This document shows positions 14,273-64,000 of a DNA stretch of 64,000 nucleotides, in pieces. This DNA is from an uncultured bacterium (GTDB lineage: Bacteria; Chloroflexota; UBA5177; JANWHV01): positions 256,001 to 320,000 of the forward strand of contig CAWHAE010000009.1 of NCBI GenBank assembly GCA_963827235.1. The letters run 5' to 3'. Each line of letters starts with the position of its first letter. Position 1 is the first letter of the stretch. The position numbers and the translations under genes were made by a program. The notes under the pieces are model-generated. The model was given only the letters and a program-made list of their open reading frames with translations. It made no database searches and was not told where the DNA came from.

Positions 14273-15031
14273 CGGGTCCAGTCGTGGCGACGACATTTGA
14301 CTGCCACTGCGATCCAGTTTGGTCATTTGGTCGCGCAGCAGAACCGTCCCCCGCTGAATGACGCGGTTGCCTTCCGTGCTAGGACCACGTCTGAACCGAG
14401 AATGCCTCCCGCACTTCCGATCGACTGCATAGTCGTCACATCGGCGCTGCGTGACAAGATCGCGCTGACCTTGCCGATCACGCAGGCTTGTCGTCGTCTG
14501 GCAGTACAGTCTGTGCACGGCCCGAGCCAGTGCATCATTCGCGTGATCCAGGATTGCTGCGTCTGCACGCTGCGACACAGATGCACATGTGCGAGGTCAT
14601 GCCCACAACCGCCGGCTCAGCCGCGAGAGTTCTCGATTTGGCCGCTCTCCCACCCATACACACATCATCCGAGCGCCACAGTGCGGCAAGAGTGCGGGAA
14701 CTGTGCGGGATCTCTTCATGGCCGGGCGGATAAAACACGTTCAAACTGAAGAATATACGGTAACAGCTCAGAACTGGCTCCCTACAGGGCCGAAAGGAGC
14801 AGCCACCTTCGTCGATACGCGGTCGAAGATCCGGTCACGGCCAGCACGGCCTTCGACCCGGCAGCCACGTATGGTCCCGGCTCGGCCCGCGCCTGCAAGC
14901 GCGTGAGCGCCTGCCGGAAAGCACCATCACGGCGTGCGGGACCGCAACATGCTCCCAGTGGTGCGGCGCGACCGCACGGTCTACCCCAGGTAATTCTTCG
15001 AATGGCATGTCCAGCAGACAGGATAAACATT

Positions 15032-16762
15032 ATGCGCACACGACTGCGATTCTCGACCCTCTCGACTCTTCGGCAGTACGTCGTCCTACTTCGTGGTGCC
15101 GCCTGCGCGCTCGTTGTCGTCTGCACGCTGGCTTTGGGTGCCGGCGCTGTGACCGGGCCGCACGCATACGCCGCGGCGGCTTGCAGCCCAACGACGACGC
15201 CCACGGCCGACGACACGCCACCTGCCGACTTCTCCAGCGACGCCAACATCATCGGCAACTTCACCGCGGCCCGGCAGGCCGAGGGATGCGCGACGACCTT
15301 CACGCTGCCCGCGGGCTTCGATGGGCTCTCGCCGCAGCAGCAGATGCTGGCCCTCTTCAACACGGAGCGCGCCGACCGCGGACTGGGCGCCCTGCAGCTG
15401 GACGGCACGCTCCTCTCTCAAATCTCGCTCAACCACAGCCGCGAGATGGCGCAGTACGCGTACTTTGACCACCCCAGCCCGATCAATCAGCCGACCGGAG
15501 TCTTCGCCCGGTTCACCGTCAACCCGGCAATTGCCCATGCAAGCCACGGTGAGGGCGAGAACATCTCGGCCGGCCAGTCGACGGCGGCTTCGGCGGTTTA
15601 CGGCTTCATGTACCAGGATTCGCAGTCAGCCTGGGGTCATCGGCACAATATCCTGGGCAACTTCGATTGGGTGGGCATCGGCATCGCCCCGGGCACGCCT
15701 ACCAGCCCGTTCACGCCGTACTACACCGACGACTTCCTCCAGGACTCGCCCGCCACGCCCTACACGCCCCCCGCAACCGCCAACACCAATGCGCCCAGCC
15801 TGAATGCGCCGACCCTCGCGGGCTCGGTTGCCACGGTGACCAACGTCGTCGAGCAGGGCGACCCGACCGCCATCACCGGGGTGGTGTTCTACACAGGATC
15901 GATTGTCGAAACCGGGAACACCTTCAACACCGTTGCCGCCACCAACCAGGGAAACGGCACCTGGACGGCAACGCTCCCCGCAGGAGCCACCGGCGCGCTG
16001 CACGCCATAGCCGTCGACGCCAGCGGTAACTTCACCGATGTCGCCATCGCCGGCGCAACCGCTCCCGGAGGCGGTACGGGCGGCACTGGCGCCTGCACGC
16101 CGGACGGCACGGTCTGTCTCACGAGCTTCACGGCCAGTAGCACGGCGCCTGCCGCGGGCACAAGCGTGACGCTGACCGCATCGACCAACATCGATCCCGG
16201 ACCGACCATCTGGTTTGTCGATATTGTCGATGAGAACGGCGCCATTCTCACGAGCTGCGGCTCCGGCCTGAGCTGCACCGCCACCGCGTCGTCGGCCGGC
16301 GCTGCGACGCACCAGTACACGGCACGGCTGAGCACCTCGTCGTCCAGCATCAGCGCAGGTGCGCCGACATCCGCCACGGTCGCCGTGACCTGGAGTGCAG
16401 CCGCCGGTGGTACCGGTGGCACGGGTGGCACCGCCGCTCCCGGCGGCGCAGGCGCCTGCACGCCGGACGGCACGGTCTGCCTGACGAGCTTCACGGCCAG
16501 CAGCACGACGCCTGCCGCGGGCACAAGCGTGACGCTGACCGCATCGACCAACATCGATCCCGGACCGACCATCTGGTTTGTCGATATTGTCGATGAGAAC
16601 GGCGCCATTCTCACGAGCTGCGGCTCCGGCCTGAGCTGCACCGCCACCGCGTCGTCGGCCGGCGCTGCGACGCACCAGTACACGGCACGGCTGAGCACCT
16701 CGTCGTCCAGCATCAGCGCGGGCGCGCCGACGTCCGCCACGGTCGCCGTGACCTGGCACTGA
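15032..16762 (+). CDS. Secreted CAP (SCP) domain protein with Ig-like domain and two C-terminal repeats
   Basis: Signal peptide ending AYA; LFNTERADRGL...NHSREMAQYAYFDH...GENI...WGHRHNILG...VGIGI CAP motifs. Confidence 0.9.
   Translation: MRTRLRFSTLSTLRQYVVLLRGAACALVVVCTLALGAGAVTGPHAYAAAACSPTTTPTADDTPPADFSSDANIIGNFTAARQAEGCATTFTLPAGFDGLSPQQQMLALFNTERADRGLGALQLDGTLLSQISLNHSREMAQYAYFDHPSPINQPTGVFARFTVNPAIAHASHGEGENISAGQSTAASAVYGFMYQDSQSAWGHRHNILGNFDWVGIGIAPGTPTSPFTPYYTDDFLQDSPATPYTPPATANTNAPSLNAPTLAGSVATVTNVVEQGDPTAITGVVFYTGSIVETGNTFNTVAATNQGNGTWTATLPAGATGALHAIAVDASGNFTDVAIAGATAPGGGTGGTGACTPDGTVCLTSFTASSTAPAAGTSVTLTASTNIDPGPTIWFVDIVDENGAILTSCGSGLSCTATASSAGAATHQYTARLSTSSSSISAGAPTSATVAVTWSAAAGGTGGTGGTAAPGGAGACTPDGTVCLTSFTASSTTPAAGTSVTLTASTNIDPGPTIWFVDIVDENGAILTSCGSGLSCTATASSAGAATHQYTARLSTSSSSISAGAPTSATVAVTWH
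16088..16756 (+). repeat. Near-identical 306-bp direct repeat (16088-16393 and 16451-16756) inside the CAP gene
   Basis: Both copies encode GACTPDGTVCLTSFTAS...ATVAVTW with few nucleotide differences. Confidence 0.95.
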
Positions 16763-39364: not shown

Positions 39365-42300
39365 ATGAGCAGTTGGTTAGGAATGCAACCCAGGCATCTC
39401 AAGCTCGTCACGGTGGGTCGGGTGAAGCTCTGTGTCGATCCAGTGGAACTGGCGGATGCGAGAGATCCGACGGAGCTTCCATCCTTGCCGTGTACGGCGT
39501 TGGGCCAGGATGCCCGAGGCTTCCTTTGGGTCGGCACCCAGAACGGGCCGATGCTCTTTGATGGCTGCTACTGCGGCACTCCGGCCGCTCTATCCGGCAT
39601 GGGCGGCTCCACGATCAACTGCCTCTGCTTTGGTGGGAACGACACCGTGTGGGCCGGCACCGAGGGAAGTGGCATTGCCTGGATTCAGATCGGGCTCACC
39701 GGCCCCCGACTCCGCCGCCTGCTGACACGCTCGGATAGCCTGCCCGGTGACTTGATACACTCGCTGTGCTCCGATAGGCGGGGCCGAGTGTGGGCGGGCA
39801 CGCCAGACGGCCTGGCTCTGCTGGAGCATGGTTGCGTTGCTCGGGTCATGGGCGCGCTCGACGGCTTACCCGCGGCGCGCGTAAACGCATTGGGGTACGA
39901 TACGCGCGATCGCCTGTGGGTAGGGACCGACCGGGGAGTCGTCGTGCTCGTCGATGGTGCCGTCTCTTTCACCGGGGACCAGGCGTGCCCGTTCACCGAG
40001 GACCTGGTTCAGCGGTTCTATTGCGATCCGCTCGGGCAACTGTGGGCCGGCACGCGCGCCGGCAATCTGTTTCGGGCCGAGGTCGGAGCAGACGGCCGGG
40101 TACAGGTAGCCTACGTGCACGGCTGGGGGTCGCCAATCGCCGACATTTGCATGGCTGCCGATGGTCGCCTTTGGGTGGCAACGCTGGAGGGCGTGTTCGT
40201 GCTTACCGCCGGCGTCCTGAGCGATCACCTGGCGGTCGCCGACGGCCTGCCGTCGGCCGACACATCTGCACTCTATTGCGACCGTGACGGCCGCATGTGG
40301 GCCGCGACTCGCAAGGGCCTCGCGGTGCTTCTTGACGTTGATTATCCCGTGCATGTGCTTGTCGGCGCTGATCTTCGCGCGCGGGTGGTGTGGAATATCG
40401 AGCCGGATGCCAACAATTGCATGTGGCTCGGCACGGATAGCGGCCTGATCGCCGTATCAGGTGAAGACTCGCAGGTTCTGCATCTACCTGATCTCCCGGA
40501 GACACTGCGCGACAATGCGATATGGGCAGTGCGCCACGACGGCCTGCGCCAGATCTGGGCGAGCCAACGGCGGAACGGTCTGTTCTGCCTGGACGCCTCG
40601 ACCGGAGCCCCACTGGCCCATATGCTGGCCGACCGCGGCGTGAACGTGATCGCCATGTGCATGGTAGGGCAGCAGGACCTGTGGCTGGGCACGTCGCGCC
40701 ACGGCCTCATCTGTGTCGACATGCGGTTGCGGAAGGTCGTGGGAGAGATTGGCACTGCAGACGGTCTCCCCGAGACGTTGGTGTCTTGCCTCCATCTGGA
40801 CGGCGCGGGTCGTCTCTGGGCCGGTACCCTGTCCGGGCGGCTGGTCTGTATTGACCCCGTGCAACGCGCGATTCTGTCTACGCTCGAGTTGGCCACTCAT
40901 GGCCCTGCCCCCTCGGCTTTGTGCCTGATGCATGACACTCGGAGCGGGCTATGGGCCGGTACCAGTGCCGGGTTGATGAGCATTGATCCTGATCGCAACA
41001 CGATACTCCGCACCATCGGAGCGGCGGACGGCCTCAGAAGCCTGACAGTGCTGGGATGCACCGTCGATGCCCGCGGTCACCTCTGGCTGGGGACGGGATG
41101 TGGCGTGATCCGCTATGCGCCCGACACCGGCACTCTCGCGGTGATCGACCGCAGCATGGGCCTGCCACATGACGAATGCGATCAGAACGCCGTTCATCTG
41201 GACGACCGCGGGAGGCTCTGGATCGGCACCGCCAAGGGCCCGGCGATCATCGACACCAACCGGATCCCCATCGACGTGCCTCCTTGTCCCGTCGTCCTGA
41301 CAGGGTTCCTCGTCATGGGCGAGGAGCGCGACGTGACGCCCGACCTGGAACTGGAAGACAGCGATTGCGACCTGCAGTTCTCCTATGCCGCCGTCTCCTT
41401 CACGGCACCGACGCTGGTCCTTTACCGTGTTCAGCTGGAAGGCTTCGAGTCGGGCTTCTCGTCCCCGAGCACCGAGCGCAGCCGGCGCTACACGAACCTC
41501 CGGCCCGGAGCATATGTGCTCCGTGTTTCGGCGTGCAATTGGGGCGGAACGTGGAGTACGCCACTCGAGATCCCCCTGCGCATCGTCCGCAACCATCAGG
41601 CACAGGAGGCGGAAGAGGCCCTGGAGCACGAGCGGTTCGAGAAGGAAGTCTATCGGGCGGCCGCGACACGGTTGGAGGATCTGAATCAGCGGCTGGCAGA
41701 GGCATCACGGCTGAATGGCGAGTTGCTGGAGCAGACCAGGGCCTCATACGCGGACACGCTGGCACGCCAGGAACGGCTGTCCGCGCTGCAGACCATCTCC
41801 TCGACCCTGGCGGCGACGCGCACGCCGTCCGAGGTCGGCGAGCAGATCATGCGCATTAGCGCCCTCTATCTGGACGCACCTTTCATCAGGATTCGCCTGT
41901 TGAGTGCCGACAGGGCATGGCTCGAGCACGTCATTGCTTCCACTAACGATACGGAAGACCCGCGTTTCCCCAAGCGACGGCCCTATGACGACCAGGTGCC
42001 GTCGGCCGAGGCCGTGCGGACCGGCCGCCCGGTCTGGCTCGAGTCGCCGGAGGAGATGCTGGCCAGGTTCCCAGACTTCGCTCGCAAGATGAGGGAACGC
42101 GGTTTCCTGGCCAATGTGACGCTGCCGCTGCTCACCGACGGCGAGGCGATAGGCTCTATGGGGCTCATGTTCACCGCGCCGCGTCGCTTCCGCGGCGACG
42201 AGCGCGAGTTTCTGCTGGCCGTGGCCAGCCTGGCCGCGCAGGCGGTCGATCGCGCCTGGCTCTATGCGCGGGAACAGAAGCGAGCACAGACGGCGGAGGA

Positions 42301-43060
42301 TCTGGCGCGCATGCGCGGCGACTTCGTGGCCTCTGTCAGCCACGAGCTGCGCACGCCACTCACGGCCATCGTCGGCTATGCAGAACTGCTGGAGGCGCGC
42401 TGGAGCATGCTGGCTGACCAGGCGCGACTCGAGCACGTGCGCCGGATCGTCTGGTCCGCCAACCGGCAGTTGCGCCTCGTACAGGATCTGCTGTTGGTAA
42501 GCAAGCTGGACTTGGGAGCGCCAACCCTTGAGTGCAGGCCGGTGGACCTGGAAATGCAGGTGCAGCTCGCAATCGCCGAGCTGCAGGGCAGCTATCCCGG
42601 CCAGCGCGTGGAGACGGTCGGCCCACCGGAGATCCGGGTACACGCGGACGCGGCACGGGTCAGCCAGATCCTCGTCAATCTCCTGGACAATGCCGCCAAG
42701 TACTCGCCGGAAGGAAGCCCCATAGAAGTGGACTGGAACGTCGTCGCGCCGGAAGCGAGGATACGGGTGCGGGACTACGGGCCGGGCATTCCGGCTGAGG
42801 GACGGCAACGGCTCTTCTCGCGGTTCGGCCGAATCTCCGGGAGCCGGATTCGGGCCGGCCGGGTAGGGACGGGGATGGGCCTGTTCCTGGCCCGCCAGCT
42901 CGCCCGAGCGATGGCGGGTGAGCTGGAGCTCGAAGACACCGGACCGCAGGGGACCATTTTCTGCCTGCGGCTGCCGCTGGTTATCGAAGGGTTCTCTACA
43001 GAGTCGGTCGGTCGGCCAAATGCCGGCACGGCGAACGATGAGCAGGGCAGAAGTCTCTAG
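39365..43060 (+). CDS. Sensor histidine kinase: Reg_prop beta-propeller repeats + Y_Y_Y + GAF + HisKA + HATPase
   Basis: Repeated D..G.LWVGT..GL; YRVQLEGF..RYTNLRPGAYVLRV; SHELRTPLT; NLLDNAAKYS, DYGPGI, GTGMGL. Confidence 0.92.
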   Translation: MSSWLGMQPRHLKLVTVGRVKLCVDPVELADARDPTELPSLPCTALGQDARGFLWVGTQNGPMLFDGCYCGTPAALSGMGGSTINCLCFGGNDTVWAGTEGSGIAWIQIGLTGPRLRRLLTRSDSLPGDLIHSLCSDRRGRVWAGTPDGLALLEHGCVARVMGALDGLPAARVNALGYDTRDRLWVGTDRGVVVLVDGAVSFTGDQACPFTEDLVQRFYCDPLGQLWAGTRAGNLFRAEVGADGRVQVAYVHGWGSPIADICMAADGRLWVATLEGVFVLTAGVLSDHLAVADGLPSADTSALYCDRDGRMWAATRKGLAVLLDVDYPVHVLVGADLRARVVWNIEPDANNCMWLGTDSGLIAVSGEDSQVLHLPDLPETLRDNAIWAVRHDGLRQIWASQRRNGLFCLDASTGAPLAHMLADRGVNVIAMCMVGQQDLWLGTSRHGLICVDMRLRKVVGEIGTADGLPETLVSCLHLDGAGRLWAGTLSGRLVCIDPVQRAILSTLELATHGPAPSALCLMHDTRSGLWAGTSAGLMSIDPDRNTILRTIGAADGLRSLTVLGCTVDARGHLWLGTGCGVIRYAPDTGTLAVIDRSMGLPHDECDQNAVHLDDRGRLWIGTAKGPAIIDTNRIPIDVPPCPVVLTGFLVMGEERDVTPDLELEDSDCDLQFSYAAVSFTAPTLVLYRVQLEGFESGFSSPSTERSRRYTNLRPGAYVLRVSACNWGGTWSTPLEIPLRIVRNHQAQEAEEALEHERFEKEVYRAAATRLEDLNQRLAEASRLNGELLEQTRASYADTLARQERLSALQTISSTLAATRTPSEVGEQIMRISALYLDAPFIRIRLLSADRAWLEHVIASTNDTEDPRFPKRRPYDDQVPSAEAVRTGRPVWLESPEEMLARFPDFARKMRERGFLANVTLPLLTDGEAIGSMGLMFTAPRRFRGDEREFLLAVASLAAQAVDRAWLYAREQKRAQTAEDLARMRGDFVASVSHELRTPLTAIVGYAELLEARWSMLADQARLEHVRRIVWSANRQLRLVQDLLLVSKLDLGAPTLECRPVDLEMQVQLAIAELQGSYPGQRVETVGPPEIRVHADAARVSQILVNLLDNAAKYSPEGSPIEVDWNVVAPEARIRVRDYGPGIPAEGRQRLFSRFGRISGSRIRAGRVGTGMGLFLARQLARAMAGELELEDTGPQGTIFCLRLPLVIEGFSTESVGRPNAGTANDEQGRSL

Positions 43061-54560: not shown

Positions 54561-57500
54561 ATGCAGGTAGACACCTCATTGGATGCCGGTTTTGGCGCAC
54601 ATGTCGACTGGCCTGAGGCTTCCGGTCCGGTCGATCCTGCCAGACTTGCGGCTGCCCAGAATCAGTTCTCGCGGCTGCCGATAGATGCCATTCCCGGCCC
54701 GTCGCCGCTTCCGCCCGGATCGCGTGTGCCGATTATGCCGAATCCGTTGTTCACTGGGCGCACCGCGGACCTTCGCGTTATGGCCGCGCTGTGCAAGTCG
54801 GCTGCTCCGATCGTGGTAGCACTCGACGGTCCAAGCGGCATCGGCAAGACATGCCTTGCAATCGAGTTCGCGTATCGTTACGCTGGATATTTCGCGGGCG
54901 GCGTCTTCTGGCTGAGCTTCGCCGATCCCACAAACGTTGCGATTCAGGTAGGCGCTTGTGGCGGGCCCGACGCCCTCAACCTATGGACCCAAAGAGACGT
55001 TCCGCCACTGCACGAGCAGGTGCGCCGTGTTCGCGCCTATTGGCGTAGTCCGTTGCCGTGCTTGCTTATCTTCGACGGCTGCTCCGCTGAGACGTCGATA
55101 GAGGAGTGGCGGCCGCCGGACGGTGGTAGTAGGGTTCTTGTAACCGGACGCTTCGGACAAGGCCTTTCCAGATCGATTACCTCGCGACTGCAGCTTTCTG
55201 GTCTCTCGCCTGCCGAAGCATTGGAGCTGCTACACGCCTTTCGCCCCGGCCTTCCGACCGACGATGAGGAGCTCGGAGCCATCGCGAGAGAGCTTGGCGG
55301 CGTACCGCTGTCTCTCCATCTGGCAGGTGGCTCGATGAGCAGCTCACGTCGAGCGATTGCGCCCGCCGAGTACCTTGCCGAGCTACGCAGCATGCCGCCG
55401 GCCGCACCCGGCGAGCATAGAGCCGTGGGGTTTGACGAGCGCGACATGCCGCCGCATCTCGCGCGTGCCATTGAGCTCAGCTACGATCGCCTCGACCCAG
55501 ACGATGCTATCGATGCTCTTGCCATCAGACTCCTGGCACGCGCCACATATTGCGCCGCGGATGCGATCATCCCTTGCAGCTTGTTGTACTCGGCAGTCGA
55601 TAAGCCCGAGGCGAGACGCGATGAAGCGAAGCTCGCGCTGGAGAGGTTGATTCGCCTCGGCCTGTCGACGTCGATGGGGGAGGATTCAGTTCAGACATTT
55701 CCGCTCCTCGCGGAGTTCGGGCGCGCGGCCTTGCAAGATCCGTTGGCTCAGACCGATGTCGAAGTTGCCGTGCTGGAAGAGGCGAACCGGATCACTGGCC
55801 TCGCTCATGCCGAACAGGCCGTTCTCGTGGAGCCGCACCTGAGGGCACTGACGGATGCCGCGCTCCGGCGCGGTGACGCGCATGCCGCAGCTCTTTGCAC
55901 GGCCCTTGGCAACTATTTGATGCTCGTCGGCAGCTATGCAAAGGCACAGGACTACTTCTTGCGCGCGCTCTCGGTCGACGAGACCACCTACCGCGAGCAG
56001 CATCTAGATATTGCCGGCGGCCTGCGAACGCTCGGCGGGCTGCAAAGGGCACAAGGCCGTTTTTCGGAAGCCCGCACGCTCTACGAGCGTGCCCTGGATA
56101 TCCGCGAACGCCTGCTGGGACTCGATCATCCGGACACCGCCGAGAGCCTCAACGACCTTGGAGGCCTCCTTCGCGATCAGGGTGAGTACCCAACCGCCCG
56201 CCGGTACTACGAACGCGCCCTGGCTATCCGCGAGCGGGTGTTGGGGCCCGATCACCTGGATACCGCGGCAAGCCTGAACGACCTGGCAGGCGTATTTCGC
56301 GACCAGAACGAGTACCCAACCGCCCGCCGGTACTACGAACGCGCTTTGGCTATCCGCGAGCGGGTGTTGGGGCCCGATCACCTGGATACCGCGGCAAGCC
56401 TGAACGACCTGGCGGGTTTGCTGCGCGAGCAGAGTGAGTACTCAACTGCCCGCCGGTACTACGAACGCGCTTTGGCTATCCGCGAGCGGGTGTTGGGGCC
56501 CGATCACCTGGATACCGCGGCAAGCCTGAACGACCTGGCAGGTTTGCTGCGCGAGCAGAGTGAGTACTCAACTGCCCGCCGGTACTACGAACGCGCTTTG
56601 GCTATCCGCGAGCGGGTGTTGGGGCCCGATCACCTGGATACCGCGGCAAGCCTGAACGACCTGGCAGGTTTGCTGCACGTGCAGAGTGAGTACCCAACTG
56701 CCCGCCGGTACTACGAACGCGCCCTGGCTATCCGCGAGCGTGTGTTGGGGCCAGACCATCCAGACATCGCGGCCGCACTCAACGACCTGGCGGGATTGCT
56801 TCAGGATCAGGGCGACTATGAGGAGGCCCGCTCGCTCTACGAGCGTGCGCTGGCTATCGAAGAACGATCCCACGGCCCGCAGCACGTCAGGGTGGCTACA
56901 GCTCTTCATAGCCTTGCCAGTGTGCTGCGGGATCAGGCAGACTACGGGAAAGCTCGGCCGCTCTACGAGCGTGCCGTGGACATCCGTGAGCGCCTGCTGG
57001 GGCCCGATCATCCGGACACCGCCGAAAGCATCAACGATCTAGCCTGCCTCCTGCGGGCGCAGGCCGACTACCAAACAGCGCGGCCACTCTACGAGCGTGC
57101 CCTGGCAATTCGCGAGCGCGTACCGGGACCTGAGCATTCAGTTACGGCGGCGAGCCTGAACGATTTGGCTGTTCTGCTCCATGCACAGGCTGATTTCCCT
57201 GCCGCCCGCGTCAAGTACGAGCGCGCTCTTGCCATACGACTGAAACTGCTTGGCCCAAACCACCCAGATATCGCGGCCAGCCTGCACAATCTGGCCGGAT
57301 TGCACCAGGATTTGGGTGAGTATGCACAGGCCCGCGAATACTTCGAGCGGGCCTCGAAGATGTACGAATGTACGCTTGGGCCTGAACATCCGGACATCGC
57401 GACTACCTACAATAGCCTTGCCGCGCTGTTACGTGCCCAGGGTGATTTAGCCGCCGCCTCCCCTCTGTACAGGCACGCCTTGTCCATCCGCGAGCGCAGC

Positions 57501-59531
57501 CTGGGCCCGAATCACCCTACCACCGCAGCCAGTCTCAACGATCTGGCGGGCCTGCTGCAGGACCAGGGCGACTACGCGGCGGCCCACAGTCACTACGAGC
57601 GCGCCTTGTCCATCCGCGAGCGCGTGCTGGGTCCGAATCACCCTGCCACCGCAGACAGTCTCAACGATCTGGCGGGCCTGCTGCAGGACCAGGGCGACTA
57701 CGCGGCAGCCCGCGCGCACTATGAGCGCGCCTTGTCCATCCGCGAGCGTATGCTAGGTCCGAACCACCCTGCCACCGCAGCCAGTCTCAACGATCTGGCG
57801 GGTCTGCTGCAGGACCAGGGCGACTATGCGGCGGCCCGCGCGCACTATGAACGCGCGCTGTCTATTCGTGAGCGGGTTCTGGGTCCAGAGCACCCCGACA
57901 CCGGTCAAACGCTTGCCAACCTCGCCGTCCTGCTTCACAATCACGACGACGACCTACTGCGCGCGCGTGAATGCCTGGATCGCGCTCTGCGCATTGGCAC
58001 CAGGTATTTTGGCGTGAACTCCTCGGAGGTCATCGTCGAGCGCAACTACCTTGCGCTTCTGCTAGGCGCGATGGGCGAGCTGCCCGCGGCGCGGAAATCC
58101 TTCGAAGATCTCGCGATCGCGATTGAGCACTCGGAGGTCCTGGAGCCACCAAACAGACAGCAGTTCCAAGGATATACGCAGCAGTTTGCACGTGAGATGG
58201 AAGCGGCATGGACGAGCAATTCGGAACGGGGCCGAAGCTCGGCACTCGGACGTGCTGCCGGAGTGCTATCAGACGTCACCAGGTTGCTTGCCAGGGTCAC
58301 CCAGGCAGAGCGCGCGGTCCTGGAGCGAATCTCGAAACGTTGGCGGGAAGTCGTCACCCGTGAGTCTGCACGGGCAGGTAGGCTTGCCATTCTGAAACAG
58401 GTCGCCAGTCCCTACAACTTCACGATTCCGGTGGAGGGTCTGGCGCTCGTCGGACGAACAGATGTGTTTGAACGGATCGAATCCCATTGGAGCGGCCCAG
58501 GCGCACGAGACTCCTTGCTCATCCACGGTCATCGCAGAATGGGCAAGACCAGCGTGGCCCAGGCCATCGTGGAGCGGTGCCACCTTGGTGACGATACTCG
58601 CCGGATCTACCGCTCGATGGAGACGGTACAGCTGCGGCACGAGGGAGACCTGCTCTATGCGCTGGCATCGGCCCTTCAGCTCGAGTTTCCCGAGTCACTG
58701 CCGAAGCCTCGACGGCACGCCTATAGGTTCTCCGACGCGCGCACGGCCTTTGACCGTTTCCTTCGTCGCCTGGAGCAGGTGAGAGGGCAGGCCCGCATCG
58801 TCATGGTTCTGGACGAGTTCGAACTGCTTTTCGAACGTCTGGGAGCCGGGGAGGCGGAGGAGGCACTTCAGAATCTGCGCGGCCAGACTAACACCTATTC
58901 GTGGTTGGCTCTTGCCCTCGTCGGACTGAGCGACCTCCAGGATCTGCAGTACTCCTACAAGAGTGCCATTCTCGGTTGGGTTGGCATTCGCGTGGGTTTC
59001 CTCGACCACGGCCAAGTCGCCGATGTACTGGCAAACCCCGCGCGTGATCCCGACTTTCAGCTCGAGTACACGCAGGAGGCCCTGACTCACATCGCAGTGC
59101 TGACAAATGGCCAGCCATACCTTGTGCAGGTCATCGGCGACCTGCTGGTGCAGCGCTACAATCGCATCCGCTTCACGGAACGACGGGACCACAGCGGCAC
59201 GTTTTCGATTGAAGACGTCAAGGAGGTGGTCGATAATCCCGCCTTCTACGAGACTGCGAGCGCCTATTTCACAGGCGTATATGGTCAGGCAACGCGCGGC
59301 CAGCAAGGTCAGATAAGCGTCCTCACTGCGCTTGCCCCGTACGAGAACGGCTTGAGCGAAGACGCGCTGCGGAGTGCGGTCCAGCTCGACGACGATACGC
59401 TCAACGAAGCGCTCACGGCGCTGGAACGACACGCTGTGCTGTACAGGAGTGACTCCCAGCTCCTCTATAGCGTTCCTCTTATGCGGCGCTGGATGGAGAG
59501 GACTTACCTCGGCATGAACCCTCGGGCCTAG
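54561..59531 (+). CDS. NB-ARC/STAND NTPase + ~17 TPRs + second P-loop ATPase (1656 aa)
   Basis: NPLFTGR, GPSGIGKT, LLIFD, VLVTGR, LGGVPLSL; 42-aa TPRs (YERALAIRERVLGPDHLDTAASLNDLA); then SPY...LVGR, GHRRMGKT, VMVLDEFE, TNGQPYLVQ. Confidence 0.92.
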   Translation: MQVDTSLDAGFGAHVDWPEASGPVDPARLAAAQNQFSRLPIDAIPGPSPLPPGSRVPIMPNPLFTGRTADLRVMAALCKSAAPIVVALDGPSGIGKTCLAIEFAYRYAGYFAGGVFWLSFADPTNVAIQVGACGGPDALNLWTQRDVPPLHEQVRRVRAYWRSPLPCLLIFDGCSAETSIEEWRPPDGGSRVLVTGRFGQGLSRSITSRLQLSGLSPAEALELLHAFRPGLPTDDEELGAIARELGGVPLSLHLAGGSMSSSRRAIAPAEYLAELRSMPPAAPGEHRAVGFDERDMPPHLARAIELSYDRLDPDDAIDALAIRLLARATYCAADAIIPCSLLYSAVDKPEARRDEAKLALERLIRLGLSTSMGEDSVQTFPLLAEFGRAALQDPLAQTDVEVAVLEEANRITGLAHAEQAVLVEPHLRALTDAALRRGDAHAAALCTALGNYLMLVGSYAKAQDYFLRALSVDETTYREQHLDIAGGLRTLGGLQRAQGRFSEARTLYERALDIRERLLGLDHPDTAESLNDLGGLLRDQGEYPTARRYYERALAIRERVLGPDHLDTAASLNDLAGVFRDQNEYPTARRYYERALAIRERVLGPDHLDTAASLNDLAGLLREQSEYSTARRYYERALAIRERVLGPDHLDTAASLNDLAGLLREQSEYSTARRYYERALAIRERVLGPDHLDTAASLNDLAGLLHVQSEYPTARRYYERALAIRERVLGPDHPDIAAALNDLAGLLQDQGDYEEARSLYERALAIEERSHGPQHVRVATALHSLASVLRDQADYGKARPLYERAVDIRERLLGPDHPDTAESINDLACLLRAQADYQTARPLYERALAIRERVPGPEHSVTAASLNDLAVLLHAQADFPAARVKYERALAIRLKLLGPNHPDIAASLHNLAGLHQDLGEYAQAREYFERASKMYECTLGPEHPDIATTYNSLAALLRAQGDLAAASPLYRHALSIRERSLGPNHPTTAASLNDLAGLLQDQGDYAAAHSHYERALSIRERVLGPNHPATADSLNDLAGLLQDQGDYAAARAHYERALSIRERMLGPNHPATAASLNDLAGLLQDQGDYAAARAHYERALSIRERVLGPEHPDTGQTLANLAVLLHNHDDDLLRARECLDRALRIGTRYFGVNSSEVIVERNYLALLLGAMGELPAARKSFEDLAIAIEHSEVLEPPNRQQFQGYTQQFAREMEAAWTSNSERGRSSALGRAAGVLSDVTRLLARVTQAERAVLERISKRWREVVTRESARAGRLAILKQVASPYNFTIPVEGLALVGRTDVFERIESHWSGPGARDSLLIHGHRRMGKTSVAQAIVERCHLGDDTRRIYRSMETVQLRHEGDLLYALASALQLEFPESLPKPRRHAYRFSDARTAFDRFLRRLEQVRGQARIVMVLDEFELLFERLGAGEAEEALQNLRGQTNTYSWLALALVGLSDLQDLQYSYKSAILGWVGIRVGFLDHGQVADVLANPARDPDFQLEYTQEALTHIAVLTNGQPYLVQVIGDLLVQRYNRIRFTERRDHSGTFSIEDVKEVVDNPAFYETASAYFTGVYGQATRGQQGQISVLTALAPYENGLSEDALRSAVQLDDDTLNEALTALERHAVLYRSDSQLLYSVPLMRRWMERTYLGMNPRA
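56184..56751 (+). repeat. About 4.5 near-identical 126-bp tandem repeats (TPR units)
   Basis: GAGTAC..AAC.GCCCGCCGGTACTACGAACGCGC recurs at 56184, 56310, 56436, 56562, 56688. Confidence 0.95.
57478..57885 (+). repeat. About 3 similar 126-bp tandem repeats (second TPR block)
   Basis: TGTCCATCCGCGAGCG at 57481, 57607, 57733; CTCAACGATCTGGCGGG.CTGCTGCAGGACCAGGGCGACTA three times. Confidence 0.9.
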
Positions 59532-59549
59532 CGAATTAGGGGCACTACC

Positions 59550-61469
59550 GTGAGCAAGCTCGCGCCCGCTTTGACCATCTCTGTAGGGTCGCCCGATACG
59601 AACGAGCGTATCCCCTTGACGCTCAGCCTGTCTCCGGAAGGAGGAGAGGGCGAACAGTGCACACTGGAGCTGCCATTCCCATTGGCAAGGATTCCACTGC
59701 TGCTACGAGCCCTGAGCGCGCGTCAGAATCCGTACTACCCGACCAATGACAAAATGTTCAGATCGGCTGACGAGCGTGAACAGGCCGCCAACCATCTGCG
59801 GAATCTCCAGCTTTGGGACGACAATGCCGGGCCATCAGGCGCGGTGGTCAGTGACGTTCATATGCGCGTGGGACAGATTCTCGGTGCCGCCATACTGGCT
59901 GCCGGGACTATGAGATCAAGCCTATCGACACTCTATGACGCGGCCATTGCCGCCGGAGAAGGCGAGGTTGTCCTGCACTTTGAGCCGAACGCTACGTCGT
60001 TGGCAGCCTTACCATGGGAGCTGGCCTATGATGGGCCGCGACCTATCTTATTGGCGCGCGGCACACATCTTGCTTGTACCCGGATACTTGCCTTTGGTCA
60101 CGCGCTGGCGCAGCAACACAATGACGGCCAGGAACGGCACATTCTTACCGTCGCGCCACACGCGTACATGGACGACGCTGCACGCGCCTTCGAGCAAAAC
60201 GCTCGCATGCGATTGAGAGAGGCCGTGCGCGAACGCCCTGTGGTCGTCGAATCCCTCAATCCGGCTACCATGGAGGCGCTCAGCACGCGCTTGGAGAAGC
60301 AGCCTCGCATCGATGTACTGGACTACTTTGGCCATGGGCGACTCACGAATGCCGGAGGCGCCTTGCTGTTTGACAGTCCTCAGGGCGGGCCCCACCCTGC
60401 TCTGGCCAGCCAGTTGGCCGCTCTCCCAGCGCTGCCGCTGCTCGTCGTATTGCACGCCTGCCACTCCGCCCAGGTGGATATCGACGAGCCACTCGCTACC
60501 GTAGCGGTTGCTCTGAGTGAGGCTGGAGTGCGCGCCGTCATAGCTATGCAGGTGACCATCCAGATGAGTGCAGCAACGAACTACGTTGTGCCGACCCTCT
60601 ACCAAGCTCTAGCGGACGGACGAAGCGTCCAGCAGGCAGTCACCGACGTGCGACGTTCTCTCTTTACCGCCGAGCCAGGCGGCACGAGCTGGTATGTTCC
60701 CGCGCTATACCTGCGCCAACCCGATCGACAGCCGTGTGTGCCCCTACCGAAGCGCACCGCCGCAGCACCTAATCCGTTCGCGGGCCTCGGCGCGCTCGAG
60801 GATTCATCACAGTTGGTTGGACGCAAGCCGGAACAACTGCGGCTATGGGAGCGCTTGCAGGCCGGCGGTCATTTGTCGATCGTTGGACCGGCCGGCAGTG
60901 GTAAATCGGCCATGCTGGCGCTCATCGACGCGCGACGAGAGTCACTGCTTACGCGGAAAGGTGCAAAGCTCGTCTGGCTGAGATTCCATCCGCGGATGAA
61001 CCTGGTAGGAGCCCAATTCACTCTCGCCACGGCGCTCGGTGGTAAGAAGGTAACGGACTTGACGCGTTTCCTCTACGACAGACATCTCTTCCTGATCCTG
61101 CTGCTGGACGATCTGCACCTGCTCGATAAGGGCTCGATCGGACTCGATGTACGGATATGGCTACGGGGTATTGCTACGCCGAGTGCCGGCGCGAAGGTGC
61201 AGCTCGTGGCAACGAGCACGGAGCCGCTCTCCCGTGTCTTCGAGCAGGATGATCCAGTCATAGCGTCTCCGCTGGCCGGCACGCTGAGCGACGCGATTAC
61301 ATTGGGCCCGTTGGCGAAAGACGAGGCCCGAGAGTATATCCGCTCGCGGCTCGAGAATACTCCACTTCTGAGCAGCCAATTCGAAAGCCTGCTCACGCAG
61401 CCACTGTATCCGGGACCGTTGCAGACCGCGTGCCGAATCCACTATGACAGCCTCTGCGAGGCTCAGTGA
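59550..61469 (+). CDS. CHAT (caspase-like) protease domain + P-loop ATPase
   Basis: LAALPWEL, DVLDYFGHG, LVVLHACHSA, GVRAVIAMQ, WYVPALY; then PNPF, LVGR, GPAGSGKS, LLLDD, WLRG, SPLAG. Confidence 0.9.
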   Translation: MSKLAPALTISVGSPDTNERIPLTLSLSPEGGEGEQCTLELPFPLARIPLLLRALSARQNPYYPTNDKMFRSADEREQAANHLRNLQLWDDNAGPSGAVVSDVHMRVGQILGAAILAAGTMRSSLSTLYDAAIAAGEGEVVLHFEPNATSLAALPWELAYDGPRPILLARGTHLACTRILAFGHALAQQHNDGQERHILTVAPHAYMDDAARAFEQNARMRLREAVRERPVVVESLNPATMEALSTRLEKQPRIDVLDYFGHGRLTNAGGALLFDSPQGGPHPALASQLAALPALPLLVVLHACHSAQVDIDEPLATVAVALSEAGVRAVIAMQVTIQMSAATNYVVPTLYQALADGRSVQQAVTDVRRSLFTAEPGGTSWYVPALYLRQPDRQPCVPLPKRTAAAPNPFAGLGALEDSSQLVGRKPEQLRLWERLQAGGHLSIVGPAGSGKSAMLALIDARRESLLTRKGAKLVWLRFHPRMNLVGAQFTLATALGGKKVTDLTRFLYDRHLFLILLLDDLHLLDKGSIGLDVRIWLRGIATPSAGAKVQLVATSTEPLSRVFEQDDPVIASPLAGTLSDAITLGPLAKDEAREYIRSRLENTPLLSSQFESLLTQPLYPGPLQTACRIHYDSLCEAQ

Positions 61470-61779
61470 GCCACTCAGGGCGTCGGCGGCGTAGGCGAAA
61501 GAACGATCGCCCGACTCGGTACTTGACCATCGGTGCCAAGATGAAGGGCCGCCGTGAGCGGCAACCCGATGACGGCCACACGTCTCAGGATCAGGAGATC
61601 TGGCCGAGACTGCAGGGTACAGGCGCTGACATCACGCTCCGCACTACAGTTCCTCCCCGGTCGGCTCGTTTTCAATCCAGCTCGGCAAGAGTGCGTGCGC
61701 TCTTATGTACCGCGGTCCGAGATCGTGAGACGGCCCTGTACATACTTCATACCGATCGAAGCCCCATGCTGATCTCGAG

Positions 61780-62334
61780 CTAAGGCAAAGGCGTCGGTGC
61801 AGTAATGGCTGTCGGCGTGATCACGAGCACCCGTGTAGGACCCGGCTCGGCGGGCGCAGGCAGCTGGGTCACCACGACCAGTAGCGCCAGCAACGCCGCG
61901 AAACTAGCCACCAAGAAGCCATGCGCCAGGTGTAGGAAGCATAGTTTCTCGCCCACGGTCTCGGTGTAGGTCCGTCGCAGCGCCAGCCAAGCATTAGCAT
62001 CGAGATCGTTCGTATTGGAGTCCTTGCGGACACGCGGCAGAAAAGTCAGCGTGGCGAAGAACTGGCTGGTCAGCCACAGCGCCACCGGCAGGAAGAACAT
62101 CAGCAGCCACATGTGGGTGACCTGCTTGCGCAGATCACTGAAGGCGAAGACGGCCAGGTAAAACCCCTGCAAGGTGCCCGTGAGGGTAATCAGTTGTTTG
62201 GCCGCATCCTCGACCCTGCCTAGCTCCTGCAGCGGGGCTTCCGTGGCGATCGCGCGCCACCGCTCTGCGGCCGCTTCAGCTCTGTTTTGCTCTCCTGCAT
62301 TTGGCTCCTGGCCGGAAAACTCAGGCGATGACAT
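61780..62334 (-). CDS. 3-TM membrane protein, candidate effector
   Basis: EDAAKQLITLTGTLQGFYLAVFAF / LLMFFLPVALWLTSQFFATLTFLPR / K..FLHLAHGFLVASFAALLALLVVV; starts 1 nt after the upstream stop. Confidence 0.8.
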   Translation of the reverse strand: MSSPEFSGQEPNAGEQNRAEAAAERWRAIATEAPLQELGRVEDAAKQLITLTGTLQGFYLAVFAFSDLRKQVTHMWLLMFFLPVALWLTSQFFATLTFLPRVRKDSNTNDLDANAWLALRRTYTETVGEKLCFLHLAHGFLVASFAALLALLVVVTQLPAPAEPGPTRVLVITPTAITAPTPLP

Positions 62335-62335
62335 A

Positions 62336-62581
62336 TCAGGCTTGATTTCCCTGCACCACCGGCAGGCCGTTGCTGTAACCCAACACGCCGTCGCCGAGTA
62401 CCGGGTTGCTGACATCCCAGGTATCAGGCAGGTCAACCATATTCAGCCGGTTGCAGGTGCCGCAGTAGAATGGCTTTCGCTTCGTGCTGACCACCGCGAC
62501 CACCTTCTCCGGCACGGATACCTCCGTCTCTGTCTCCGCCGAGCAATGATAGCAGCGGATCACGATCTTCATCTGGGCCAT
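62336..62581 (-). CDS. Small zinc-ribbon protein (CxxC...CxxC)
   Basis: GGAGG RBS; IRCYHC...FYCGTC; 81 aa. Confidence 0.8.
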   Translation of the reverse strand: MAQMKIVIRCYHCSAETETEVSVPEKVVAVVSTKRKPFYCGTCNRLNMVDLPDTWDVSNPVLGDGVLGYSNGLPVVQGNQA

Positions 62582-62881
62582 AGTGCGATCCTCCCACGCT
62601 GTCGCCTGCACAATCGAAATATGCTCGCCACCCTGGTGCTACCTCGTTCCCTCAGCCTACGCTCTCCCGCCCTTCGCCGCTACCCGCTCGCCGGCCACGG
62701 GCGTTCATGCGCGACACGAGAAACTGCTCTCCGTGGCCAAGGCCGTCCATGATTTCGGCTTGACTGATCGGCGCCCGACGTGTCGGCACCTAGCGGCGAC
62801 CGCGATCCGTGCGCCCGGGCCGACTGCCCTGGACTGGAGGACCGGAGGGGACACACTGCCAGACAGGCGGATCTCGCTACA

Positions 62882-63020: not shown

Positions 63021-64000
63021 CTACCGGCGACCGGCGGCACGGATCCGGCCGCTCTGCATCGTTGGCTGGCCTTCACTCCCGGTGCCGCGCGGGTATGGGA
63101 TGTCGGCAGCGAGGATGCCGCGTTGGCGGAGGAGAGCAGCCAGCTGCGAATAGCTGATGCCGTGCTCGAGCGCAATCGTGGATGCATAGCTGGCACCCTG
63201 CGGCACACCTGGCCGGATACGGAACGTCCGACGCTCGCACTCTTCTGCACCGTCCAGTACGACCTCTGCAAGCAGGCCACCCACGCGGGAATCCCCCGGT
63301 GTCTGCGCATTGATCTCATCGACCCGAGCCGCGAGCTCGTGCAGGTGCGTCACGTAGATGGCCCGTGCCCCGAGCATCCGCAAACCGCGGACCACATCAC
63401 AGGCCAGGGCCAGGCCTTCGGTCGCGCTGGTCCCGGCGAGCACTTCGTTCAGCACGATCAGGCTGTTCGGACTCGCTTGGTGGAAGATCGCGGCGAGCCG
63501 TGCCGCCTCCTCGTCCAGCCGCCCCATGCCGGGCTGGGCTCGCTCTGGTGTCGGGAAATGGGTGTAGATGCCATCGACGGGACTCAGCCGTGCGGCACGC
63601 GCCGGAACATACAACCCGGCCTGAAACAGCACCTGGGCCACGGCCACACTGCGCGCATAGACCGTCTTGCCTCCCCGATTGGGACCGGTCAGAATCCAGA
63701 CTCGTCCCTGCGTGGCATCAAAGAGCACGGGATTGGTCACGAGCTCGTCCGTCACCGGGCGAGCGGCGGCACCATCAAGCATGCGGAGGGCGAGCGTGAG
63801 ATTGTAGCTCTCGTCGAGGGTACAGACTCGCTGGTCGATGGAGGCACACTCTGGTCGGCACAGGGGCAGCCCCACCGCGCGTAGCTGGCCAAACAGAGCG
63901 GCGCTGTGGAGCAGGAAGGCCAGCTCGGGTTCGATGGCGCAGAACGTCCGGGTCTGTACGCTCAGGTAGCGGTCGAGCGCCTTGCGCACCGGATCCGTCA
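63021..64000 (-). CDS. MutS domain V-type ATPase (5' part outside window)
   Basis: ILTGPNRGGKT, Q.GLYVPA, IYTHFP, GRLDEEA.RL, IVLNE...TS..EG, YVTHLHEL, SYA. Confidence 0.9.
   Translation of the reverse strand, partial: TDPVRKALDRYLSVQTRTFCAIEPELAFLLHSAALFGQLRAVGLPLCRPECASIDQRVCTLDESYNLTLALRMLDGAAARPVTDELVTNPVLFDATQGRVWILTGPNRGGKTVYARSVAVAQVLFQAGLYVPARAARLSPVDGIYTHFPTPERAQPGMGRLDEEAARLAAIFHQASPNSLIVLNEVLAGTSATEGLALACDVVRGLRMLGARAIYVTHLHELAARVDEINAQTPGDSRVGGLLAEVVLDGAEECERRTFRIRPGVPQGASYASTIALEHGISYSQLAALLRQRGILAADIPYPRGTGSEGQPTMQSGRIRAAGRR

Follow-up and report, generated by a model that had tools for sequence, protein, structure and literature searches.

In the bacterial gasdermin-protease systems, a CHAT or C14 protease, which is often fused to NACHT, TPR, LRR, or WD40 modules, is encoded beside a membrane-permeabilizing protein and activates the latter by cleavage, leading to cell death (Johnson et al., 10.1101/2021.06.07.447441). 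The EACC1-caspase systems are found in multicellular bacteria, and their membrane partner is defined by a single conserved glycine-rich transmembrane (TM) helix (Kaur et al. 2020, PMC7159879), while in the NOD-like receptor (NLR)/Bell amyloid-signaling pairs of filamentous bacteria, including Chloroflexi, an NB-ARC/NACHT-TPR protein is encoded beside a small, predicted membrane-targeting death protein (Dyrka et al., 10.1101/2020.01.06.895854). The subject of this report is a four-gene locus (genes A to D) at positions 54561-62581 of a stretch of 64,000 nucleotides (nt) from an uncultured bacterium of the Chloroflexota (lineage UBA5177; JANWHV01), corresponding to positions 256,001 to 320,000 of the forward strand of contig CAWHAE010000009.1 in assembly GCA_963827235.1; this whole stretch is referred to as the window. 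One of the four gene products is a candidate relative of PycTM, a membrane effector of the Pycsar systems, the biology of which was reportedly laid out by Tal and coworkers in 2021.

The locus is interpreted, with a probability of roughly 55%, as an atypical version of an as yet unnamed module, made up of three parts and conserved in the Chloroflexota, that would act as an NLR-like, protease-gated membrane-effector system, likely serving immunity or cell suicide. Judged from sequence, the parts of this module are a CHAT protease with a STAND NTPase and a TPR array, a 4-Cys zinc-ribbon protein, and a PycTM-related three-helix protein of ~150-190 amino acids (aa). In the window, gene A (54561-59531, forward strand; 1656 aa) codes for an NB-ARC-like NTPase, a TPR array, a second ATPase, and a C-terminal winged-helix-like tail, without an effector domain. 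Gene B (59550-61469, forward strand; 639 aa, GTG start) codes for a CHAT caspase-like protease with a P-loop NTPase, without repeats. On the reverse strand, gene D (62336-62581; 81 aa) specifies a 4-Cys zinc-ribbon protein with two CxxC pairs, and gene C (61780-62334; 184 aa) a membrane protein with three hydrophobic helices. These four open reading frames (ORFs) had been proposed in a first-pass annotation of the DNA and were recovered to the base.

Conserved neighborhood of the module

A scan of metagenome contigs yielded 17 loci with a TM gene of the C family, among which L026/L027, L028/L029, and L033/L034 are near-duplicates, leaving fewer independent cases. In every one of the 17, the TM gene is immediately preceded by a D-type zinc-ribbon gene. 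The pair in turn follows directly on a co-directional giant ORF (1282-1661 aa) in nine loci and on the C-terminal end of such a giant in four more; the remaining four loci possess at most 525 nt of upstream DNA. Each of the six giants that were scanned combines CHAT, AAA_16/NACHT, and TPR, and an all-against-all comparison of the metagenome loci revealed no fourth conserved gene.

The same arrangement is seen in assembled genomes. The family profile matches 26 of the 401 genomes of a phylum sample at E ≤ 0.01, the genome of the window included, and 20 loci from 19 of the matching genomes were examined together with one more genome locus, G025. Of the 20 fetched loci, 17 carry an adjoining, co-directional giant with CHAT and/or STAND domains, and three are truncated by contig ends; the small 4-Cys ORF just upstream of the TM gene is clean in 16 and present as a fragment or fused in four. 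Overall, a co-directional CHAT-STAND giant stands beside the pair in 13 of 17 metagenome loci and 18 of 21 genome loci, and the rest lack sufficient flank. The enrichment of zinc-ribbon/3-TM genes beside CHAT/STAND genes, which the first-pass annotation had named as the test of its proposal, is thus observed: wherever the flank is long enough, the pair adjoins a CHAT-STAND giant.

Two gene orders occur, namely, giant-zinc ribbon-TM and zinc ribbon-TM-giant. The second is found in one clade (G025, L095, L097-L099, and L106), with G025 reading zinc ribbon, TM, and CHAT-STAND-TPR. The genes of giant and pair are often overlapping, for instance by 4-8 nt in L020. Within the Chloroflexota, relatives of the module occur in Ktedonobacteraceae, Oscillochloris, and Chloroploca. 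Tandem trios are present as well: L030 (5426-14814) holds a giant, a zinc-ribbon gene, a TM gene, and a second giant, and at the start of L032 (2-6026), the giant is preceded by the end of a further TM gene. Other copies are decayed; two ORFs stand in place of one TM gene in L096 (9315-9879), L033 (607-1178), and L034 (1438-2009), while L112 (1079-2479) has a CHAT gene in fragments and retains only half of the zinc-ribbon gene.

Compared with these loci the window is atypical in that the CHAT, STAND, and TPR content is divided over A and B, the D-C pair is inverted, and the CHAT domain of B is of a different subfamily; A and B jointly hold the same domains as the single-chain giants. The stop codon of A and the start codon of B are spaced by 18 nt, an AGGGG motif being located 8 nt ahead of the GTG of B, and the stop codons of the convergent genes B (61469) and C (61780) enclose an intergenic gap of 310 bp (61470-61779). 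Both the 18-nt spacing and the gap of about 310 bp to the facing pair had been recorded in the earlier reading, and both are correct. The genome of the window (8.0 Mb) contains two CHAT-domain genes and one gene of the TM family, and one of each is found here, 310 bp apart; with so few copies in 8.0 Mb, the adjacency is unlikely to be due to chance. The other CHAT gene of the genome resides on contig C12 (672395-673198, reverse strand) in an ORF of 1000 aa (CHAT E 1.4e-62). A search of 54 kb for a decayed canonical giant near D-C found none.

Features of the four gene products and their surroundings

The C protein has 22 homologues with 42-54% identity in a word-indexed protein collection, and none of the families in the domain libraries scanned (Pfam, NCBIfam, and PADLOC) scores above threshold on it. 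Its relationship to PycTM (PF18967) became apparent by profile comparison with hhalign, the PycTM side being made up of 11 PF18967 proteins from genomes of the phylum. A probability of 80% (E 1.3e-5) was obtained; further runs gave 86%, 79%, and 75.7%, and a 140-sequence C profile gave 93.6% (E 2e-7) over 107 collinear columns, while reversed and column-shuffled controls stayed at or below 1.8% in 20 runs. The features common to C and PycTM are D/E-x-K/R-A/Q ahead of helix 1, P-R past helix 2, and K...L-R-x-A ahead of helix 3. At E ≤ 0.1, the only PADLOC models to match C are a "2TM effector" model of the type of the cyclic-oligonucleotide-based antiphage signaling system (CBASS) and two PycTM models, all of them below threshold. 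In the ESM Atlas, a PycTM-named cluster is at rank 3 for C (score 0.88). The earlier suggestion that the TM protein is a membrane effector fares well in this respect, the relationship to PycTM, a defense effector domain, being found by hhalign at 76-94% probability.

The C family is not a small one: clustering at 50% identity yields 1054 clusters at E ≤ 1e-3 and 411 at the stricter E ≤ 1e-10, and its members are nearly all stand-alone proteins of 140-190 aa. Only helices, three of them hydrophobic, are present in the predicted model of C. A fold search of this model against 48,161 PDB representatives returned generic helical bundles only, the best Z of 9.5 being too low to be meaningful for a helical model, and these matches were discarded. 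None of the 125 pattern matches from a scan of the genome contigs with the TM alignment was confirmed. The PADLOC model C3a152 (PDLC01077) matches the TM protein of L101 at 6.8e-42 and that of G025 at 5e-11, and the C-family profile aligns with the C3a152-matching subgroup at an hhalign probability of 99.6%, while C itself against the C3a152 model gives nothing at E ≤ 0.1. By profile comparison, C would belong to the same protein family as C3a152.

Gene D is preceded by a Shine-Dalgarno-like GGAGGA (62590-62595, reverse strand), which can be read directly from the DNA. The spacing between the stop codon of D and the ATG of C is 1 nt, and D is predicted to be translationally coupled to C. The four cysteines of D (C10, C13, C40, and C43) are invariant in 14 of 14 sequences. 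The predicted model of D is all-beta, with a predicted local distance difference test (pLDDT) score of 77.5, and a fold search of this model against the PDB found no match at E ≤ 0.001; PADLOC v2.0.0 is without any model for D. Co-folding of C with D gave a score of 0.00 in a run without controls, which carries no weight either way.

In gene A, all features of which are on the forward strand, the NB-ARC/STAND NTPase spans aa ~61-400 (54741-55760), with GPSGIGKT as Walker A and LLIFDG as Walker B. The Pfam NB-ARC model covers aa 72-262 (E 1.2e-4; 21.9 bits, slightly under the cut-off of 23.5 bits), and NCBIfam FxSxx_TPR (NF040586) spans both NB-ARC and TPR parts (aa 61-775; 538 bits, cut-off 300). 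The TPR_12/TPR_10 array at aa ~440-1160 (55878-58040) is made up of 15-17 TPR stretches and contains near-identical units of 126 nt (42 aa), with 5.7 copies at 90% identity (56081-56800) and 3.3 copies at 89% (57476-57886). The repeat regions at 56081-57037 and 57476-57886 suggest recent homogenization or expansion of the repeats, and repeat homogenization is a described trait of NLR sensors (10.1101/2020.01.06.895854). A second P-loop ATPase of the AAA_22/AAA_16/ATPase_2 type follows at aa ~1296-1462 (58446-58946; Walker A GHRRMGKT, Walker B VLDEF). The first-pass annotation had recognized the NB-ARC/STAND and TPR portions of A, which are borne out, and had overlooked this second module. The Avs type, to which it had referred for STAND-TPR proteins in general, finds no match in A by the PADLOC models: neither the Avs nor the bNACHT models hit A, which is reached only by generic TPR and PDC-S39 models via its repeats.

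The second ATPase and the tail of A form a module (58071-59531, aa 1180-1656) with 32 relatives at E ≤ 1e-5. These are NLR-like proteins that carry the module at their C-terminus and CHAT (P0037), caspase C14 (P0042), or TIR (P0038) at their N-terminus; a sigma-54 activator/receiver, or nothing, is found there in others. With CHAT, C14, and TIR at the N-termini of its relatives, A is therefore counted, on sequence grounds, as a putative effector-less member of a double-NTPase NLR-like family. A copy of the tail itself (aa 1574-1656, 59280-59528), 83 residues long and 42% identical (E 4e-15), forms the N-terminal extension with which the B-like protein P0034 begins. For P0034 and for the A-like protein P0041, the longest contig is in each case listed as 8310 bp; this match, together with the tail, suggests without proving it that the order A-then-B recurs elsewhere.

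In gene B, likewise on the forward strand, the CHAT domain extends over aa 125-374 (59922-60671; E 6e-17), with the catalytic residues His262 (60333-60335) and Cys304 (60459-60461), and an AAA_16/nSTAND1-like NTPase over aa 409-639 (60774-61466; Walker A GPAGSGKS, Walker B LLLDD). Seven relatives of B (P0030-P0036) share 41-49% identity over the NTPase part, and His262, Cys304, and Walker A and B are invariant in all eight proteins. Among 25 aligned CHAT domains, none departs from the His/Cys dyad. The B-like protein of a Ktedonobacteraceae locus (L048, 33-1685) has N-N in place of the Walker B D-D that is otherwise invariant in the B family, and its NTPase may be inactive. The CHAT domain of B is closest to stand-alone CHAT proteins of the Chloroflexaceae (E 1e-31 to 1e-53), and such stand-alone proteins are present in 25 of 25 genomes of that one family. 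PADLOC reports "chat", "SAVED_CHAT", and a weak mad8 for B, and NCBIfam HetF is a weak match (33.7 bits, cut-off 1200). That the C-terminal ATPase module of A and the NTPase of B are paralogues was considered and dropped (BLASTP E 13, no similarity); the coupling of A and B via their ATPase modules, as had been envisaged in the first-pass annotation, is likewise not supported by any detectable similarity between them.

As for the surroundings, the neighboring genes code for GH130, a glycosyltransferase, a hydrolase, MMPL, a MutS_V protein, an enolase-family protein, SDR, and a GDSL lipase, and PADLOC gives no matches among them save one weak mad8 for the MutS_V protein (E 0.0085). With metabolic neighbors that are without PADLOC matches, a clustering of defense genes does not explain the adjacency of A-B and D-C. 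The locus was not found in the four same-genus genomes searched (83-92% complete), as expected of accessory genes. A delimitation of the island by synteny with a same-genus genome was attempted, and only the GH130 gene proved to be common, so that no boundary was drawn. The gene for the MutS_V protein (664 aa, with no other Pfam domain) precedes D by 440 bp and, like D, is on the reverse strand (63021-64000 of the window, continuing past its end; L036 2022-4016); it was not found in the four same-genus genomes (G001-G004) at E ≤ 1e-30. A single terminator-like hairpin (61546-61567, reverse strand) is located in the B-C gap, where the hairpin count is not above shuffled expectation, as was true of the other counts of the promoter and terminator scan. 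Farther away in the window, a 619-aa ORF (14903-16762, forward strand) includes a 363-nt tandem repeat at 16079-16756 (1.9 copies, 97% identity), and a sensor histidine kinase of 1231 aa with Reg_prop/Y_Y_Y beta-propeller repeats and GAF is encoded at 39365-43060.

Proposed signal flow and rival explanations

Gene anatomy, domains, conserved catalytic and P-loop residues, the conserved neighborhood, and the distant relationship of C with PycTM are the observations upon which a working scheme can be built. The joint working of A, B, C, and D in the window, the direction of the signal, the substrate of the protease, the trigger, and the phenotype are inferred, with signal flow, substrate, and phenotype modeled on the gasdermin-protease systems and on Pycsar. 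According to this scheme, the TPR array of A would recognize a trigger, probably a protein of a phage or another invader, and the NTP-dependent assembly of A would recruit and activate B. The CHAT protease would then free the PycTM-like C protein from an inactive state by cutting either D or the cytosolic N-terminal segment of C. Eventually, C would perturb the membrane, resulting in growth arrest or death of the cell. A more specific and rather doubtful version regards A-B as a sensor/helper NLR pair, in which A, effector-less and with two NTPase modules, would activate B as a separate CHAT-NTPase executioner, and B would proteolytically license a non-gasdermin pore of the PycTM type that the dedicated zinc-ribbon subunit keeps in check, amounting to a three-tier, inflammasome-like cascade. 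If that were true, the gating of PycTM-type pores would extend from cyclic nucleotides to proteolysis.

Several observations speak against the interpretation of the locus as a copy of the three-part module. The D-C pair points toward A-B and forms a separate transcription unit, whereas all other loci are co-directional. Between the CHAT domain of B and the pair-linked giants, E values of only 1e-10 to 1e-16 are reached, and phmmer gives no match of B to the giants of L020, L026, and L027 or to the first giant of L030. At L048, the sole B-family locus with readable downstream DNA, no zinc-ribbon/TM pair is present in 5.4 kb, and metabolic and repair genes follow the B-like gene. The related loci are not independent samples, given the three near-duplicate pairs. 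Pfam PycTM applied directly to C yields E 0.22 and 12.4 bits against a cut-off of 27.2 bits; it matches only five of the 140 family members at E ≤ 0.01, while five match the unrelated LPG_synthase_TM, and C is therefore a remote relative of PycTM and not a member by curated thresholds. The convergent orientation, the deviating CHAT subfamily of B, and the L048 locus all favor the main rival, in which two separate units meet here: A-B would be a self-contained sensor NLR with a CHAT executioner whose substrate is encoded elsewhere, and D-C an orphan pair that has lost its giant or acts alone. The pairing of A-like with B-like genes, which seems to recur without a sign of the pair (tail of P0034; 8310 bp for P0034 and P0041), points in the same direction. 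This explanation is nevertheless held to be unlikely, since it has to accommodate that the only TM gene sits 310 bp from one of two CHAT genes in 8 Mb, that no locus with sufficient flank has the pair without a CHAT-STAND neighbor, and that no remnant of a giant is nearby and the neighbors are not defense genes. Furthermore, both D and C have remained intact; the ribosome-binding site is good and the coupling of the two genes tight.

A reversal of the signal, in which D-C would be a membrane sensor or anchor, as proposed for EACC1, that activates the CHAT-STAND protein, with the protease then cutting cytosolic targets, is regarded as improbable. Such a direction would fit the zinc ribbon-TM-giant order of the one clade, which resembles EACC1 loci with their 5' TM gene and 3' caspase gene (PMC7159879), and C and D are without a known cleavage site. 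It is at odds with the relationship of C to an effector domain (PycTM and 2TM effector models), with the three helices of C as opposed to the single glycine-rich helix of EACC1, and with the giants already carrying long TPR arrays, in which repeat homogenization is typical of sensors. Very improbable is a role outside immunity, that is, a developmental or envelope-signaling module of filamentous Chloroflexota in which CHAT would act like HetF in differentiation. The weak HetF match of B, the concentration of the family in filamentous lineages, and the lack of phage or mobile-element genes among the neighbors scanned would be compatible with it; the distribution, on the other hand, is patchy (26 of the 401 sampled genomes of the phylum, none of four same-genus genomes), tandem duplications (L030, L032) and decayed copies (L096, L112, L033/L034) occur, and the TPR units are homogenized. 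Patchiness, tandem and decayed copies, and TPR homogenization are traits of fast-evolving conflict genes rather than of core development. The atypical copy of a protease-gated membrane-effector module is retained as the preferred interpretation of the locus.

Relation to known systems

In accordance with the first-pass annotation, which did not recognize the combination as a named system, PADLOC v2.0.0 is without a system model for the trio, and no description of it was found in a literature search that left most subscription papers and supplements outside. The FxSxx-COOH system consists of a TPR protein accompanied by genes for a precursor peptide and a radical-SAM maturase. The NF040586 match of A covers only the NB-ARC and TPR parts, and no radical-SAM domain was seen among the neighbors scanned, small peptides not having been searched for. 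In type III-E Craspase, as in the scheme proposed here, a TPR-linked CHAT protease (Csx29) cuts a small partner (Csx30) to trigger a response, while Csx29 is activated by Cas7-11 and RNA. Csx29 is not known to have an NTPase, unlike the protease described here with its P-loop NTPase. A CRISPR connection also attaches to the entry matched by one subgroup of the C family: C3a152 is a candidate type III-C CRISPR accessory with three members, a borderline association score of 25.85 (cut-off 24), and no function given (Shah et al. 2018, PMC6546367). By comparison, the 64-kb window is without a CRISPR-like array; cas genes were not specifically searched for.

Parallels exist in the architecture of NLR-type systems. 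Avs proteins and bacterial NLRs have a tripartite design of effector, STAND NTPase, and repeat sensor, which the giants realize in one chain and the window over A and B. Like the NLR/Bell pairs, the locus has TPR repeats with high internal identity; different from these pairs, the effector is PycTM-like and a protease is present, and a shared amyloid motif was not noticed, no dedicated search having been made. With the EACC1-caspase systems it has in common a gene for a small membrane protein beside one that codes for an N-terminal caspase-superfamily domain with variable C-terminal STAND and repeat modules (PMC7159879). The difference from EACC1 lies in the three helices of C, the separate zinc-ribbon gene, and the lack of a Pfam match for C or D.

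The comparison with Pycsar concerns the putative executioner. C is collinear with PycTM over all three helices, shares the P-R and K...L-R-x-A motifs, and is of similar size; however, Pfam finds no cyclase or cyclic-nucleotide-binding domain in A-D or in 17 neighboring ORFs, PADLOC gives no cyclase match, and the activator would be a protease/NLR rather than a nucleotide. The likeness to the gasdermin systems concerns the proposed activation, with a caspase-like protease having an intact dyad and encoded beside a membrane-protein gene, cleavage being assumed by analogy. Pfam finds no gasdermin in C or D (E up to 10 or 1), and in place of gasdermin there is an integral three-helix protein of the PycTM type with an obligatory zinc-ribbon partner.

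Should the trio work as proposed, it would constitute a second kind of membrane executioner in bacterial caspase/NLR immunity, beside gasdermin, and an effector domain known from cyclic-nucleotide signaling would have come under the control of a protease-based sensor. The TM family concerned is not a small one and is essentially uncharacterized, its sole label in the sources checked being the borderline CRISPR-accessory entry. The split form, with a sensor NLR and a separate CHAT-NTPase, would offer a natural system for studying the handover of a signal from an NLR to a caspase-like protease in bacteria. Summarizing, the design of an NLR-like protease combined with a membrane executioner is already known from other systems, while the candidate executioner, its zinc-ribbon partner, and the division of sensor and protease over two genes are not.

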